Part shown: piece after piece, positions 6,833 through 11,558 of the stretch
How the letters are laid out: each line of letters starts with the position of its first letter
Position numbering within the stretch: the first letter of the stretch is position 1
Assembly: GCA_963719075.1 (NCBI GenBank)
Contig: CAVRAN010000007.1
Span: 31,709 to 95,708, forward strand
Source of the DNA: an uncultured Verrucomicrobiae bacterium
Lineage (GTDB): Bacteria > Verrucomicrobiota > Verrucomicrobiia > Limisphaerales > UBA11358
Reading direction: 5' to 3'
DNA: 64,000 nucleotides
The notes under the pieces: model-generated
The model's input: only the letters and a program-made list of their open reading frames with translations
Told to the model about the DNA's origin: nothing
The model's database searches: none
Program-made: the position numbers and the translations under genes

Positions 6833-7882
6833 TTATTTTTTCTTCGCCTTCTTGGGCGCGCCAGTCGGCACGGTGGCGATGGTCTGCAGAATGCGGCTGG
6901 CAATCTTGTAGGGGTCGCCCTGCGAATTCGGCCGGCGGTCTTCCAAGTACCCTTTATAGCCGTTATTGACAAAGCTGTGCGGGACGCGGACGGACGCACC
7001 ACGGTTGGCAACGCCATAGTTGAATTTGTCAATGGACTGCGTTTCGTGCAGGCCGGTCAGACGCAGGTGATTGTCCGGGCCGTAGACGGCGATGTGTTCG
7101 TTCTTATATTTGTCGAACGCGGCCATGAGTGCTTCAAAGTATTCCTTGCCGCCGACTTCGCGCATATGCTTGGTGGAAAAATTGGAGTGCATACCCGAGC
7201 CGTTCCAGTCCACATCCTTACCGAGGGGCTTGCAGTGCCAGTTTACGTCCACCTGATATTTTTCACAAAGGCGCATGAGGAGATAGCGGGCAACCCACAT
7301 TTGATCAGCAGCCTTCCTAGAGCCTTTGCCGAAAATCTGGAATTCCCACTGGCCTTTGGCGACTTCGGAATTAATGCCTTCGTGGTTGATGCCGGCATCT
7401 AGGCAAAGGTCGAGGTGTGTGTCCACGATTTCGCGCGCGATGTCCCCGACGTTTTTGTAGCCGACGGCGGTGTAGTATTCGCCTTGCGGAGGCGGGAAGC
7501 CACCTCCTTTCGGGAAGCCGAGCGGCGCGCCGTCCTTATAAAGAAAATATTCCTGTTCAAAACCGAACCAAGCATCCGGATCGTCAAGGATGCCCGCGCG
7601 AGAATTACTCGGATGCGGTGTCTTGCCGTCGGGCATCATGACTTCGCACATGACAAGCACTCCATTTTTCTTGGTGGTGTCGGGATAGACGGTCACGGGT
7701 TTGAGCATACAATCCGAAGTGCGACCTTCGGCCTGCCGGGTCGAGCTGCCGTCAAAACCCCACATTGGGAGTTCTTCAAGTTTTGGAAAGCCTGAAAATT
7801 CCTTGATTTGAGTTTTGCCGCGGAGGTTGGGGACGGGTTCATAGCCGTCGAGCCAGAGGTATTCTAATTTGTATTTTGCCAT
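6833..7882 (-). CDS. glnA: Glutamine synthetase, type II
   Basis: 349 aa; LEYLWLDG, WGFDGSST, FGFEQEY, GINSEVAKGQWEFQ, WNGSGMH, RLTGLHET, YLEDRRP. Confidence 0.93.
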   Translation of the reverse strand: MAKYKLEYLWLDGYEPVPNLRGKTQIKEFSGFPKLEELPMWGFDGSSTRQAEGRTSDCMLKPVTVYPDTTKKNGVLVMCEVMMPDGKTPHPSNSRAGILDDPDAWFGFEQEYFLYKDGAPLGFPKGGGFPPPQGEYYTAVGYKNVGDIAREIVDTHLDLCLDAGINHEGINSEVAKGQWEFQIFGKGSRKAADQMWVARYLLMRLCEKYQVDVNWHCKPLGKDVDWNGSGMHSNFSTKHMREVGGKEYFEALMAAFDKYKNEHIAVYGPDNHLRLTGLHETQSIDKFNYGVANRGASVRVPHSFVNNGYKGYLEDRRPNSQGDPYKIASRILQTIATVPTGAPKKAKKK

Positions 7883-7972
7883 GTGCGTTATGGTTGTTGT
7901 TGTCTTGTGAATACAGTTCGTTCAATTCAACTGTGCAAACATGTTCAGTTGAACCTGTGGTTTGACTTTTTT

Positions 7973-7988
7973 AGCAGGGCGAGTGCCA
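7973..7988 (-). promoter_or_regulatory. sigma54 (-24/-12) promoter of glnA
   Basis: Minus strand TGGCAC-TCGCC-CTGCT with correct GG-N10-GC spacing, about 90 nt upstream of the start codon. Confidence 0.75.
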
Positions 7989-8188
7989 CGTCGCAAGAAT
8001 TTTGCGTGTCAATCGGACAGAATTGTTTTTGCCCGGTCAAATAAGGGTTTTTTGATGCAGCAACTTATTCACAGGCTAAAAATAATTTGAAAACCTCTGT
8101 CGAAATTTTGCCGTGCTGTGCAAATTGTTTCCGCGTTTGCAGCACGACTTTTCAAGGCGTTCGGGATGTGCAATAGTGAATTGAATAG

Positions 8189-8584
8189 ATGTTGAAAGTC
8201 AAAGATACTTTGCGTGCAACCGTCCATTTGAGTTTTGATGGGCGCGTGTTCAAGACATATCATGGCCCGGACGCGAAAGAACGATTTAAAAATGAAGTGA
8301 ATGTTCTTAAATTTCTCGAATTACGCTGCTGCGATTTCGTTCCGCGATTGCTCGAAGCCGACGGAAAAAAACTCCGGATTGTCACCACGAATTGCGGCGC
8401 CCGTGTGGAGCATTTGGACGAGAAACGTGCGAAGGAATTGTTTGCCGAGCTAGGAAAATTTGGCGTGCGCCATGATGATCCCGGCATGCGAAACGTTACT
8501 TACCGGCAATCTGACGGACGCTTTTGTTTGATTGATTTTGAATTCGCGAGCATTCTTCCTGGTTTCAAGTCAACTCCGGCATGA
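8189..8584 (+). CDS. Minimal protein-kinase-like protein (131 aa)
   Basis: beta3 VFK, helix-C NEV, catalytic loop HDDPGMRN (HxDxxxxN), IDFE (DFG equivalent). Confidence 0.8.
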   Translation: MLKVKDTLRATVHLSFDGRVFKTYHGPDAKERFKNEVNVLKFLELRCCDFVPRLLEADGKKLRIVTTNCGARVEHLDEKRAKELFAELGKFGVRHDDPGMRNVTYRQSDGRFCLIDFEFASILPGFKSTPA

Positions 8585-9494: not shown

Positions 9495-11078
9495 TTAGCT
9501 GTGGTAACCTTCTTCGCCGTGTTCCGGAAGGTCGAGACCAGATATTTCAACTTCTTCAGATACACGCAGGCCGACCAATGCCTTAGTGATGTAAGCGATT
9601 ACTATCGTGCCCACAATGAACAATACCAGCGAGACGCCGACAGTTTTTAACTGCTCAATCAATTGCGGCTGGAAGATTTTGTCGGTGACGTATTTACTCA
9701 AGTTGGTCGCCAAGTTTGGGTTGGCAGCCTGACGGGCAAACATGCCGGTCATGATCGCGCCGCACATGCCACCGATGCCGTGGACGCTCCAAGCATCCAG
9801 CGAGTCATCCATGCCGAGCCAGCCTTTGACTTTGTAGCAGAAAAACCACGGAATGGTTCCGGCGGCGATGCCAATCCAAATCGAACCTGACGGAAGGACA
9901 TAACCGCAAGCCGGAGTGATGAGTACTAAGCCCGCCACTGCGCCGGAGCAGAAACCAAGCACGCTCGGTTTGCCTTTGACAACCCATTCCCACATCGGCC
10001 ACACGAATGAGCCTACTGCCGTGGCAATCGTAGTAGTTGTAAAGGCGTTCGCCGCAATCACATCAGCCGCGACCGCGCTGCCGGAGTTGAATCCATACCA
10101 ACCAACCCAGAGCATGGATGCACCAATGTAAGTTAACACTATACTATGCGGTGTGAAGTTTTCTTTGCCGAAGCCAATGCGCTTGCCAAGAATGATGCAC
10201 AGCACTAGACCCGACCAACCGGAAGACATATGCACGACCGTGCCGCCGGCGAAGTCAAGACCGTGAATTGTTGCATTGGCATTCCAACAACCATTCATCA
10301 TACCGTTGACACCCCATACCATGTGACCTTGGGTAAAATACACAATCAGCATCCACAATGTCATGAATACGAGAATAGCTTTGATCTTCATGCGTTCAGC
10401 AATCGAACCAACGATGAGTGCTGGAGTGATTATGGCGAACATCATTTGGAACATGGCATATACGTTTTCCGAAACCCAATAGGAGTAACCCGGATTCGGC
10501 GCGGAAGTGACGTTTGTAAACATCCAGCAGTCCATTGGATTGCCGACGATGCCCTTAATCCAGTCATGAGTCATGCCTAACGGACCGGTGGCCGTGCCGT
10601 CACCGCCGAAGATCATTCCATAACCACAAATGATATACAGAATAGTTACGAGGCCGGTAATCAAGAAACATTGCGCGAGCACGGACAGCACGTTCTTTTT
10701 ACGAACCATACCGCCGTAGAACAGTGCCAGACCGGGCAACGTCATGAACAACACCAGTGCCGTGCTGGCAAGCAGCCACGCATTATGACCGGCTCCTGGA
10801 AAAGATACATAGTTTCCAACGCTATTGATGAGGTTGGTGTTGATGATTGAGGGTCCAAGGCCAAAATTGACTGCCCAGTTGCCATTGGTGTCCCTGTAAG
10901 TTGCAGTTGGGTCGCCGTTTGAAAAATAAGCTTCAATTGATTCAATCCGCTGTTCAGTGGTCGGCGCATTGGTAGTCCAAGCGGCCACGGGAGCGTTCGT
11001 AGTACTATCGGCATGCGTAGAACAGACGCTCAACGCAGCGGTTGTAATCAAAGCTAGTGTCAGTAGATATCGTTTCAT
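9495..11078 (-). CDS. amtB: Ammonium transporter with N-terminal extension
   Basis: PGLALFYGG, FQMMFAIITPAL, DFAGGTVVH, WVGWYGFNSGS, DDSLDAWSVHG, GLDLPEHGE. Confidence 0.95.
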   Translation of the reverse strand: MKRYLLTLALITTAALSVCSTHADSTTNAPVAAWTTNAPTTEQRIESIEAYFSNGDPTATYRDTNGNWAVNFGLGPSIINTNLINSVGNYVSFPGAGHNAWLLASTALVLFMTLPGLALFYGGMVRKKNVLSVLAQCFLITGLVTILYIICGYGMIFGGDGTATGPLGMTHDWIKGIVGNPMDCWMFTNVTSAPNPGYSYWVSENVYAMFQMMFAIITPALIVGSIAERMKIKAILVFMTLWMLIVYFTQGHMVWGVNGMMNGCWNANATIHGLDFAGGTVVHMSSGWSGLVLCIILGKRIGFGKENFTPHSIVLTYIGASMLWVGWYGFNSGSAVAADVIAANAFTTTTIATAVGSFVWPMWEWVVKGKPSVLGFCSGAVAGLVLITPACGYVLPSGSIWIGIAAGTIPWFFCYKVKGWLGMDDSLDAWSVHGIGGMCGAIMTGMFARQAANPNLATNLSKYVTDKIFQPQLIEQLKTVGVSLVLFIVGTIVIAYITKALVGLRVSEEVEISGLDLPEHGEEGYHS

Positions 11079-11117
11079 GGTTTTAATTTTTGAATTGGTT
11101 CACTTCGTTTTCGTTGT

Positions 11118-11456
11118 TCAAACGGCTGATTCACCTTTTTCTTCGGTGCGAATGCGTACGGCTTGTTCAACCGAAGAAACAAAAACCTTGCCATCGCCGA
11201 TTTTGCCGGTTTTGGCGGATTTGATAATCGCGCCTACCGCCGCATCGGTTTGACCGTCTGCCACGACAAGTTCGATTTTTATTTTCGGCAGAAAATCCAC
11301 GGTGTATTCGCTGCCGCGGTAGATTTCGGTGTGGCCTTTCTGACGGCCAAACCCTTTTACCTCGCTCACGGTCATTCCTTCAATGCCGAGTTCGCTGAGG
11401 GCGTCTTTGACTTCTTCAAGTTTGAATGGTTTAATGATTGCTTCGATTTTCTTCAT
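11118..11456 (-). CDS. glnK: PII nitrogen regulatory protein (GlnK/GlnB)
   Basis: 112 aa; [25 protein letters not shown]; directly upstream of amtB. Confidence 0.95.
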
Positions 11457-11542
11457 ATTTTTTCATAATTTAAATCCCGCTACGCTTTGCTAGCGGTGTA
11501 TAGTATTCTACTGTCATGGCTGTAACTGACCTACGCTGGCTA

Positions 11543-11558
11543 AGCAATGCCAGTGCCA
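11543..11558 (-). promoter_or_regulatory. sigma54 promoter of glnK-amtB
   Basis: Minus strand TGGCAC-TGGCA-TTGCT, near-consensus. Confidence 0.85.

Follow-up and report, generated by a model that had tools for sequence, protein, structure and literature searches.

Which protein is controlled by a minimal kinase and phosphatase pair encoded among nitrogen genes is the question raised by a locus in an uncultured Verrucomicrobiae bacterium. The window analysed is a stretch of 64,000 nucleotides of contig CAVRAN010000007.1. An earlier note on this DNA had suggested that the pair is a dedicated writer and eraser for PII, GSII or AmtB, with Ser49 of PII as the headline target. Dedication of the pair to nitrogen is strongly supported; among the three candidates the evidence favours GSII, and support for PII is poor. 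Across related bacteria the kinase/phosphatase module follows the gene for type II glutamine synthetase (GSII), not that for PII. It therefore probably represents an undescribed on/off control of the main ammonium-assimilating enzyme.

All five open reading frames were found where they had been placed before. The mini-kinase (mk), identified by alignment, AF2 modelling and Foldseek as a minimal ePK-fold kinase-like protein of 131 amino acids, is encoded at 8189–8584 on the + strand. A PP2C/PPM Ser/Thr phosphatase of 280 amino acids follows at 8581–9423 (+). The two frames share an ATGA at 8581–8584 that combines the mk stop with the PP2C start, and the pair is translationally coupled, as proposed earlier. 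On one side lies glnA (6833–7882, −; 349 amino acids), divergent from mk across a common intergenic region of 306 bp (7883–8188), again as described. On the other side are the ammonium transporter gene amtB (9495–11078, −), whose 527-amino-acid product has an N-terminal extension of ∼95 amino acids, and a glnK-type PII gene (11118–11456, −; 112 amino acids); both were assigned with Pfam and NCBIfam. The pair does sit between glnA and glnK-amtB, but the latter genes converge on it, and a strong, terminator-like hairpin with a 15-bp stem (9442–9475) and a T-run on the − strand lies in between. The glnK-amtB genes are not part of the mk/PP2C transcription unit.

Sigma54-type sites had been claimed for both nitrogen units, and both are correctly placed. 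A motif scan finds the consensus TGGCAC-N5-TTGC without mismatch at 11544–11558 (−), 88 nt before glnK. This is the sole exact match in the window, with a chance expectation of 0.30 and at least one match in 27 of 100 shuffles. The promoter-like site of glnA, TGGCACTCGCCCTGC at 7974–7988 (−), lies 92 nt before the gene and has one mismatch. Taken alone it is what chance would give (with up to two mismatches, 82 sites are found and 88 expected). A relaxed motif recurs: of 90 homologous intergenic regions, 56 have it on the strand of glnA, 64–125 nt before the start codon. On the kinase strand of the same regions a sigma54-like motif is found in 0 of 90.

The mini-kinase gives weak matches only to the family models of Pfam and NCBIfam. 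Its best Pfam match is APH (E 2.9e-4), at 21.1 bits against a gathering cut-off of 23.2; relatives reach 29–37 bits, with only the catalytic-loop stretch matching. The Bud32 model TIGR03724 yields 18.8 bits and its family cut-off is 125, and in the same scan neither the RIO1 nor the Pkinase model matches mk. A search among 1.84 billion representative sequences returns 291 clusters at E ≤ 0.001. The residues typical of the ePK-like superfamily are all present, i.e., the beta3 Lys, the alphaC Glu, the HxD...N loop and the metal-binding Asp. Across 41 diverse members, conservation is complete or at least 90% at K22, E36, H95, D97, N102, D116, F117 and E118; some distant members (P0102, P0105) have lost N102 or D116.

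The AF2 model of mk (pLDDT 96.2, pTM 0.88) displays a bilobal kinase fold with a C-lobe that ends early, after the DFE strand. Nothing is kept beyond the DFE motif, and the substrate-binding part of the C-lobe is missing. Hanks-type kinases are marked by a Gly-rich loop GxGxxG, an activation segment and helices alphaF–alphaI. With S-F-D-G at the loop, only 13 residues past DFE and no Pkinase match, mk stands apart from them. Foldseek returns at least 500 PDB kinase chains at E ≤ 0.001. ArkI, Rio2 and PRPK/Bud32 are the top matches, and two entries of Kae1-Bud32 fusions (3en9, 2vwb) are also found. Bud32 and RIO proteins are mainly ATPases, and ArkI phosphorylates RNA; the modelled fold of mk by itself does not prove protein kinase activity.

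The phosphatase belongs to the PP2C/PPM family, with 55.4 bits against the PP2C_2 model (cut-off 24). It scores 169.7 bits against the Stp1/IreP model and does not reach the equivalog cut-off of 230. PstP and Stp1 are the proteins to which it is most similar. The metal-binding motifs RxxNED, DGxGG, GDSR, DG and DN are readable in the open reading frame, and they are invariant across 48 mk-PP2C fusions. In loci that leave room for it, PP2C comes after mk every time (73 of 73 and 69 of 69). Both are joined in a single open reading frame in 66 of 165 loci, a sample enriched for fusions since a fused query was used, and the fused protein is modelled with a pLDDT of 88.5 and a pTM of 0.76. In G081 and G327, two genomes from a single genus, mk has no adjoining PP2C. 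The two proteins would form one two-part regulatory module, often one fused polypeptide, and no conserved third gene accompanies it in the loci examined.

The distribution of the module was compared with that of GSII in a phylum sample of 401 genomes, each at least 90% complete, of which 134 belong to the class of the window. Strong matches to an mk profile (E ≤ 1e-52) occur in 77 genomes, all in this class. The window GSII (E ≤ 1e-40) has matches in precisely these 77 class genomes and in eight of other classes (58–62% identity). Within the class, 77 genomes thus have both, none has mk only, none has GSII only and 57 have neither, although related genomes are not independent, so that fewer independent events stand behind this table than its counts suggest. 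Tallies per family are equal for the two queries (25/26 in f6, 27/35 in f7, 3/31 in f8 and 4/5 in f12). In a Planctomycetota sample, mk is present in three of 251 genomes, and all three carry the same GSII clade at 71–73% identity. The clade occurs without mk in the Planctomycetota genomes G625 (86% identity) and G525 (80%), where the GSII gene adjoins a GSI-type glnA.

Linkage is also positional. The mk and GSII genes lie on one contig within ∼1 kb of each other in 68 of the 77 genomes. Sixty-seven of these pairs are head-to-head, and in one (G348) mk, PP2C and glnA follow each other on one strand. At Planctomycetota and Pirellulaceae loci (L103, L131, L154) glnA lies upstream of the module on the same strand, so that adjacency is seen in three orientations. 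In a broader set of loci, 38 of 62 with room have GSII upstream, and only 4 of 59 have amtB downstream. Two genomes with a fused module and no GSII nearby encode GSII elsewhere.

The glnA product has the Gln-synt_N and Gln-synt_C domains of Pfam. It reaches 361 bits against the NCBIfam model GlnII, short of the equivalog cut-off of 500. Among solved structures 4bax is nearest to it (E 1.6e-89), and the yeast, plant and human enzymes come next. Domains, a length of ∼340 amino acids and the decameric GSII structures nearest to it are those of a type II glutamine synthetase. It is the sole Gln-synt_C match in the host genome, which is 93% complete, and 52 of the 77 mk-bearing genomes likewise have exactly one such match. 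No GlnE was found in the host genome, the lone GlnE match falling within the glnD open reading frame.

A complex of GSII and mk is predicted with ipSAE values of 0.80, 0.76 and 0.80 in three runs, the best of three controls reaching 0.00. In a benchmark, 58 of 80 solved complexes and two of 110 mismatched pairs come up to the mark applied to ipSAE, counts that hold only roughly here because the alignments were author-made. At least 97% of contacts are common to the runs, and the pLDDT of the partner is at least 87. The predicted interface has 48–51 contacts and contains neither a catalytic residue of mk nor a GSII Ser/Thr beside the active site; the pose looks like stable docking, not like a substrate pose. 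GSII was folded as a monomer. The contact residues R49–E52 come right after the DGSST loop, which in solved GSII structures extends into the active site of the neighbouring subunit, so the decamer may hide the modelled contact surface. Conservation is not higher at mk interface residues than at other mk residues (P = 0.52), and enrichment of the interface in residues specific to the mk-linked GSII clade is not significant (P = 0.054; hypergeometric 0.15 and 0.33).

With these data, the explanation judged best, at about an even chance of being correct, is that the module is a kinase/phosphatase switch dedicated to the adjoining GSII. The mini-kinase would dock on GSII, consume ATP and phosphorylate a Ser or Thr, and PP2C would take the phosphate off again. 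The balance of the two might tune GSII activity, in whichever direction, within seconds when the nitrogen supply changes, the amount of enzyme being set by sigma54-driven transcription of glnA. PII may pass the nitrogen signal to the module and is probably not the substrate. No published description of such an mk/PP2C–GSII switch was found in the literature.

PII as the substrate was the reading favoured earlier: mk would phosphorylate Ser49 of GlnK or GlnB, with PP2C acting like cyanobacterial PphA. The T-loop with Ser49 and Tyr51 on which it was built is indeed there (YRGSEY), and the second PII protein of the host has the same motif. Among solved structures PP2C is about equally similar to tPphA (2j82, E 2.1e-21) and to PstP (E 2.3e-25), and 45 of 57 close relatives have glnK-amtB downstream of the module. 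The earlier remark that the kinase of cyanobacterial PII has yet to be identified agrees with the Discussion of PMC10651672, which terms it 'elusive' and names SpkB as a candidate. The checks proposed along with this reading nevertheless turn out against it. The host has a complete glnD, scoring 650 bits with TIGR01693 (cut-off 519), which suggests uridylylation of PII at Tyr51. Ser49 is present in 6 of 8 PII genes of four relatives that lack mk, and is a lineage-wide feature of PII. In the broader set glnK adjoins the module in five of 59 loci, about as rarely as amtB, and glnK-amtB beside the module is a lineage-specific addition; at the locus itself the terminator hairpin and the convergent orientation of glnK also count against PII as the target. 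PII, found in 13 of 14 control genomes, is far more widespread than mk, which tracks GSII. Co-occurrence, adjacency and the predicted complex speak for GSII, and phosphorylation of PII by mk is very improbable.

Two other explanations keep GSII or its gene at the centre. The mini-kinase might be a nucleotide-driven regulatory subunit that binds GSII stoichiometrically, as Bud32 does Kae1 and RIO proteins the ribosome, and that alters GSII activity or assembly according to ATP or ADP, PP2C resetting an autophosphorylation of mk or acting on another phosphoprotein. The large predicted interface devoid of catalytic residues, the Rio2 and Bud32 folds that come next after ArkI, the truncation after DFE and the loss of N102 or D116 in distant members are consistent with this. 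The full catalytic set, including Asp97, is nevertheless kept in at least 90% of the 41 members, and an intact phosphatase as obligatory neighbour or fusion partner is most easily accounted for by opposing kinase and phosphatase activities, which leaves the subunit role unlikely. Control of glnA expression, by phosphorylation of a transcription factor, a sigma54 activator or an intermediary at the common divergent promoter region, is less probable still. Regulators are often divergent from their targets, and most loci have a divergent region, of 208–695 bp, with the conserved sigma54-like glnA promoter; yet the linkage persists in tandem orientations that lack such a region, Pfam detects no DNA-binding domain in mk or PP2C, no third gene is conserved beside them and the predicted complex puts mk directly on the GSII protein. 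An action on a small molecule or RNA is the remotest of the readings. Here mk would resemble APH or choline kinase and modify a GS inhibitor or a metabolite related to glutamine, or be an RNA 2′-kinase like ArkI, as might be suggested by the subthreshold APH match, by ArkI as the best solved fold and by the DFE motif common to both (PMC9095486). The obligatory protein phosphatase partner and the predicted protein–protein interface with GSII speak against it, as do the ArkI features that mk lacks.

Returning to the GSII switch, several known systems resemble the module in part. ArkI/AQ578, an archaeal tRNA 2′-kinase (8yv4, 8yv5), is the nearest solved fold (E 2.2e-7, TM 0.70, 24% identity). According to PMC9095486, it too is a minimal ePK-like protein with DFE instead of DFG, and it is marked by HGQ instead of HRD, a specific helix in subdomain IX and a subdomain XI. 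The mini-kinase has H-D-D in place of HGQ and lacks subdomains IX and XI; it stops ∼13 residues beyond DFE and has a protein phosphatase as its partner, whereas ArkI has 171–216 amino acids. Stk1/Stp1 systems (PknB/PstP-type) likewise consist of adjoining, often translationally coupled genes for a Ser/Thr kinase and a PP2C, but the kinases are full Hanks kinases with a catalytic domain of at least 270 amino acids and many substrates, while mk has one conserved genomic partner. Five full Hanks kinases are encoded elsewhere in the host genome. Bud32/PRPK and RIO proteins are also minimal kinase folds that bind a partner, and Bud32 is fused to Kae1 in some archaea; mk is far below the family cut-offs and its partners are different. 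The cyanobacterial PphA/PII system shares with this locus a Ser49 PII, a PP2C phosphatase and the nitrogen context, but here GlnD is present, Ser49 is independent of mk and glnK linkage is confined to one lineage.

Closer in function are two enzymes that control a single metabolic protein. AceK is a kinase/phosphatase for isocitrate dehydrogenase, and the proposed action on GSII would be akin to it. AceK is one large protein with an ePK-like superfamily kinase domain and a single active site for both reactions; the module has two catalytic domains, a 125-amino-acid kinase core and PP2C, and no search revealed a sequence relationship between AceK and the module. GlnE transfers AMP onto a Tyr of GSI and has a nucleotidyltransferase fold. 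The target of the module would be GSII and the modification Ser/Thr phosphorylation. On a wider scale it may tentatively be suggested, at somewhat less than an even chance, that the PVC group (Planctomycetota, Verrucomicrobiota) has an undescribed covalent GSII switch, controlled by PII and GlnD, that pairs the smallest known catalytically complete ePK-fold kinase with a PP2C. The kinase so envisaged has ∼125 residues, no C-lobe beyond DFE and a PP2C beside it or fused to it, and would dock on GSII and switch the enzyme by phosphorylating a Ser or Thr. Like GlnE, the module would be a dedicated bifunctional enzyme with opposing activities, acting as a covalent glutamine synthetase switch within the PII/GlnD-sensing network; if so, mk/PP2C would be for GSII the equivalent, missing so far, of the GlnE adenylylation cascade.

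The locus comprises five genes. The glnA gene (6833-7882, minus strand) encodes a type II glutamine synthetase (GSII) with Gln-synt_N and Gln-synt_C domains, which scores 361 bits against the NCBIfam GlnII model, below the equivalog cut-off of 500. Divergent from it is the gene for mk, a minimal kinase-like protein of 131 amino acids (8189-8584, plus strand) with sub-threshold matches to APH (21.1 bits, cut-off 23.2) and Bud32 (18.8 bits, cut-off 125). The mk stop codon overlaps, as ATGA, the start codon of a PP2C phosphatase gene (8581-9423, plus strand; PP2C_2, 55.4 bits; Stp1/IreP, 169.7 bits). 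A hairpin of 15 pairs (9442-9475) separates the convergent ends of the PP2C gene and amtB (9495-11078, minus strand), and the PII gene, glnK (11118-11456, minus strand), encodes the T-loop YRGSEY. The Ammonium_transp domain of AmtB starts at residue 100; the N-terminal extension of ∼95 residues has a signal-peptide-like start and then a Thr/Ala/Asn-rich stretch.

A perfect sigma54 motif, TGGCAC-N5-TTGC, is found 88 nt 5′ of glnK and is the sole exact match in the 64 kb, for which the chance expectation is 0.30 (one or more matches in 27 of 100 shuffles). A sigma54-like copy with one mismatch, by itself not above chance, is situated 92 nt 5′ of glnA. Of 90 homologous intergenic regions, 56 carry a relaxed form of the motif on the glnA strand, 64-125 nt ahead of the start codon. 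None of the 90 carries it on the mk strand, and no such promoter was found for the kinase operon. The gene layout, the ATGA overlap, the sigma54-like sites and the T-loop had all been described in the earlier note and are confirmed. A further sigma54-like site, TGGCATTCCAGTTGC (17912-17926, plus strand), differs from the strict consensus at one position. A tRNA-Pro(TGG) gene (11753-11829, minus strand) lies between ispH and glnK, directly upstream of the glnK promoter and on the same strand. An Rfam scan of the window detected neither a glutamine riboswitch nor any other RNA linked to nitrogen; its only matches are two tRNAs and a fluoride riboswitch (crcB motif; 22781-22864, minus strand; 46.1 bits, gathering score 34).

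No family model in the curated libraries covers mk, and a search of 1.84 billion representative sequences yields just 291 clusters of relatives at E ≤ 0.001. Across 41 aligned, diverse members, conservation is complete or at least 90% at K22, E36, H95, D97, N102, D116, F117 and E118; these are the β3 Lys, the αC Glu, the HxDxxxxN loop and the DFE metal-binding motif of protein-kinase-like enzymes. The AlphaFold2 model is confident (pLDDT 96.2, pTM 0.88). Its first Foldseek match is the RNA kinase ArkI (171-173 amino acids; 8yv5; E 2.2e-7, TM 0.70, 24% identity), followed by Rio2, the CurKC kinase domain, PRPK/Bud32 and OspG. According to excerpts of its description, ArkI has HGQ in place of HRD and DFE in place of DFG, and keeps subdomains IX and XI (PMC9095486). 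In contrast, mk retains the catalytic Asp and terminates 13 residues past DFE. No Gly-rich loop motif, activation segment or later helices are present in mk. Because of the retained Asp and the early end, mk is, as judged from sequence and predicted fold, a new and extremely reduced member of the protein-kinase-like superfamily. Matches in the Protein Atlas are the Verrucomicrobiota clusters of the family itself, together with weaker candidate look-alikes in phage clusters, and gave no new lead.

Where a locus has room, a PP2C gene is found 3′ of mk without exception, both among the closest relatives (73/73) and in a broader set (69/69). The two are fused into a single open reading frame of ∼400-430 amino acids at 66 of the 165 loci holding both, a count inflated by the use of a fused query in the second locus search (8 of the first 80 loci are fused). 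The fused proteins, whose kinase-like plus PP2C architecture is borne out by Pfam, are carried by Planctomycetota, Opitutia, Chthoniobacterales and some Pedosphaera-like genomes. No metal-binding motif of the PP2C varies among 48 fusions, and a model of a fused protein has a pLDDT of 88.5 and a pTM of 0.76. An mk gene without an adjacent PP2C gene was found in two genomes of one genus (locus L176 in G081 and L177 in G327). The solitary mk of L177 overlaps the end of mgtE, and GSII is encoded elsewhere in both genomes. Some members look, by their residues, like pseudo-enzymes: the distant mk proteins P0102 and P0105 have lost the catalytic-loop Asn (N102), P0102 also the DFE Asp (D116), and the fused form P0027 has a degenerate PP2C with an affected DGxGG motif.

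The neighborhoods of mk point to GSII as the nitrogen gene that the module of mk and PP2C follows. The 80 nearest loci (72-85% identity) all come from Pedosphaera/Limisphaerales-type Verrucomicrobiota. GSII is divergent upstream of mk in 57 of the 72 with room; a downstream amtB is seen in 45 of 57, and so is a downstream glnK. The broader set has 77 loci, and GSII still lies upstream in 38 of 62 (35 divergent, 3 co-directional); of 59 loci, four have amtB downstream and five have glnK there. The outer flanks (hemC, ispH) differ even between close relatives. Of the 77 genomes of the class that bear both, 68 have GSII and mk side by side; the neighbors of the nine non-adjacent modules (SecDF, a P-type ATPase, fmt, trpE, mgtE) share no theme. 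Unlike the usual divergent layout, one locus (L172, G348:C1:2850000-2862000) has mk, PP2C and glnA in that order on one strand, in an operon-like arrangement.

For co-occurrence, the phylum was sampled with 401 genomes of at least 90% completeness, 134 of them from the class of the window. The mk profile has strong matches in 77, every one in this class. The GSII of the window is found in exactly the same 77 and in eight genomes of other classes (58-62% identity), which are without mk. Within the class, 77 genomes thus have both genes, none has mk alone or GSII alone, and 57 have neither, including one (G126) with 8 kb of sequence outside what was searched; as these genomes are related, independent events are far fewer than 134. 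Tallies for the mk and GSII queries are the same in families f6 (25/26), f7 (27/35), f8 (3/31) and f12 (4/5), and the two genes were therefore gained or lost together in several lineages.

In Planctomycetota, mk is present in 3 of 251 genomes, all three with a GSII of the window's clade (71-73% identity), and 17 of the 251 have a more distant GSII (48-61% identity) and no mk. In two Planctomycetota genomes the fused gene is far from GSII, which is encoded elsewhere in the genome. Two others, G625 and G525, have a GSII of the window's clade (86% and 80% identity, at loci L170 and L171), and mk was found in neither genome. At both loci GSII adjoins a GSI-type glnA, and at L170 also a PII gene. 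The 86% identity at L170 exceeds the 69-84% of most genomes of the window's own class, so that transfer or mis-binning is possible. Clade-specific GSII residues were considered as phosphosites, namely S188 (100% Ser, versus Ala in 17/18) and T70 (91%); since the mk-less G625 and G525 have them too, they mark the GSII clade and not the module.

The earlier note had read the pair as a candidate switch acting on Ser49 of PII, and had proposed that glnD, the Ser49 residue and the neighborhood of kinase homologs be checked. All three were, and all speak against that reading. A clear glnD is present in the window's genome (650 bits, cut-off 519), and a GlnE-family search of this genome gives a single match, inside glnD. 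Both of its PII genes encode Ser49 and Tyr51, and Ser49 is also found in six of eight PII genes from four genomes of the class without mk. With the narrow glnK/amtB synteny, these results make PII Ser49 an unlikely target, and the long search for the PII kinase loses a tempting candidate with little support. The second PII gene (L082, G000:C3:693195-696509; T-loop YRGSEY) is between dnaA and ileS, away from nitrogen genes. The genome also encodes five ordinary Hanks kinases. Its GSII is the sole Gln-synt_C gene found (93% completeness). In the lineages covered, GSII is mostly the sole glutamine synthetase: of 77 mk-bearing genomes, 52 have exactly one Gln-synt_C match and 24 have more than one, and in the single genome without a match a contig end cuts GSII.

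A direct contact of mk with GSII is predicted. GSII, as a monomer and not a decamer (49-sequence alignment), folded with mk (41-sequence alignment) gave ipSAE values of 0.80, 0.76 and 0.80 over three runs, and none of three controls exceeded 0.00. Of 80 solved complexes, 58 reach the same mark, as do 2 of 110 mismatched pairs, a calibration that is approximate here as own alignments were used. At least 97% of contacts agree between runs, and partner pLDDT is at least 87. No comparable solved complex is known to us, and the model is therefore unlikely to have passed by recall of one. The predicted contacts in GSII are E15, P16, R49-E52, M83, H90, P91, S94, G97, I98, N261, E262, I264-V266, P269-H272, I284, D285, K326, S329, R330 and Q333, and those in mk are M1, L2, F16-G18, N68, A71, V73-D77, R80, Y105, Q107, S108 and G110-F112. 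As no mk catalytic residue is among them, the pose would represent docking and points to no phosphoacceptor, and the contacted surface may be buried in the GSII decamer. The mk interface residues are not more conserved than the remaining mk residues (P=0.52), and clade-specific residues are not significantly enriched at the GSII interface (Mann-Whitney P=0.054; hypergeometric 0.15 and 0.33); residue conservation gives the interface no independent support, either way.

Peat DNA and RNA libraries contain the window stretch. In four metatranscriptome assemblies from peat RNA, whose contigs give neither strand nor level and whose libraries may hold DNA, glnK-amtB is covered by long contigs identical to the window (e.g., 10020-11316 in set X5, 9813-11026 in X11) and glnA by shorter identical ones (e.g., X5, 7339-7643). 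Short contigs from mk (X12, 8347-8497, zero differences) and PP2C (X12, 9250-9417; X5, 8944-9101) show presence in RNA libraries, which is not proof of transcription. Over most of 7972-9075, i.e., mk and the 5′ two thirds of PP2C, contig cover is nil or very shallow in the four libraries, which allows no ranking of expression. The hairpin is spanned by two contigs of separate studies (X5, 9076-9834; X8, 9123-9822), which link the amtB 3′ end to the final third of PP2C and could be amtB read-through antisense to PP2C or a PP2C 3′ UTR.

The tie of mk-PP2C to GSII rests on co-occurrence, adjacency in three orientations, occurrence in two phyla, the mk-PP2C fusion and the predicted interface. Reversible Ser/Thr phosphorylation of GSII would be the most economical mechanism, and the module would give a sole glutamine synthetase fast control, as GlnE gives GSI. 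The main rival is that mk acts on GSII as a Bud32/RIO-like nucleotide switch, with no phosphate transfer to GSII. The Foldseek matches to Rio2 and PRPK/Bud32 and the docking-type pose are compatible with it; the retained catalytic residues and the constant PP2C partner are more readily accommodated by phosphorylation.

Other explanations are less likely. Control of glnA transcription by the module would suit the shared intergenic region with its sigma54-like motif on the glnA strand, and leaves the predicted protein contact aside. A small-molecule or RNA kinase is suggested by the sub-threshold APH match and by ArkI as the first structural match; the pairing or fusion with a protein phosphatase, the catalytic Asp that ArkI lacks and the predicted GSII contact argue against it. 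PII as the mk substrate would fit the glnK neighborhood of the close relatives, which the broader set rarely shares. It is plausible that PII and GlnD are upstream sensors of the module, which would explain the recruitment of glnK-amtB beside it in one lineage. If the GSII phosphorylation reading holds, the module would fill a gap in nitrogen-regulation biology, define a new minimal kinase family and offer structural and synthetic biology a compact natural triad of kinase, phosphatase and substrate; the Verrucomicrobiota that carry it abound in soil, peat and fresh water.

Fast post-translational control of GSI occurs by GlnE adenylylation, by feedback inhibition and by the cyanobacterial inactivating factors. 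No dedicated modifier of bacterial GSII is known to us, and searches of full-text literature, subscription journals aside, found no GSII-dedicated kinase or phosphatase in Planctomycetota or Verrucomicrobiota. The ePK-like fold, the PP2C and the covalent regulation of a metabolic enzyme are of kinds already known; what is new is how extremely the kinase has been reduced, its obligatory partnership with PP2C, as a pair or a fusion, and the exclusive tie to GSII.
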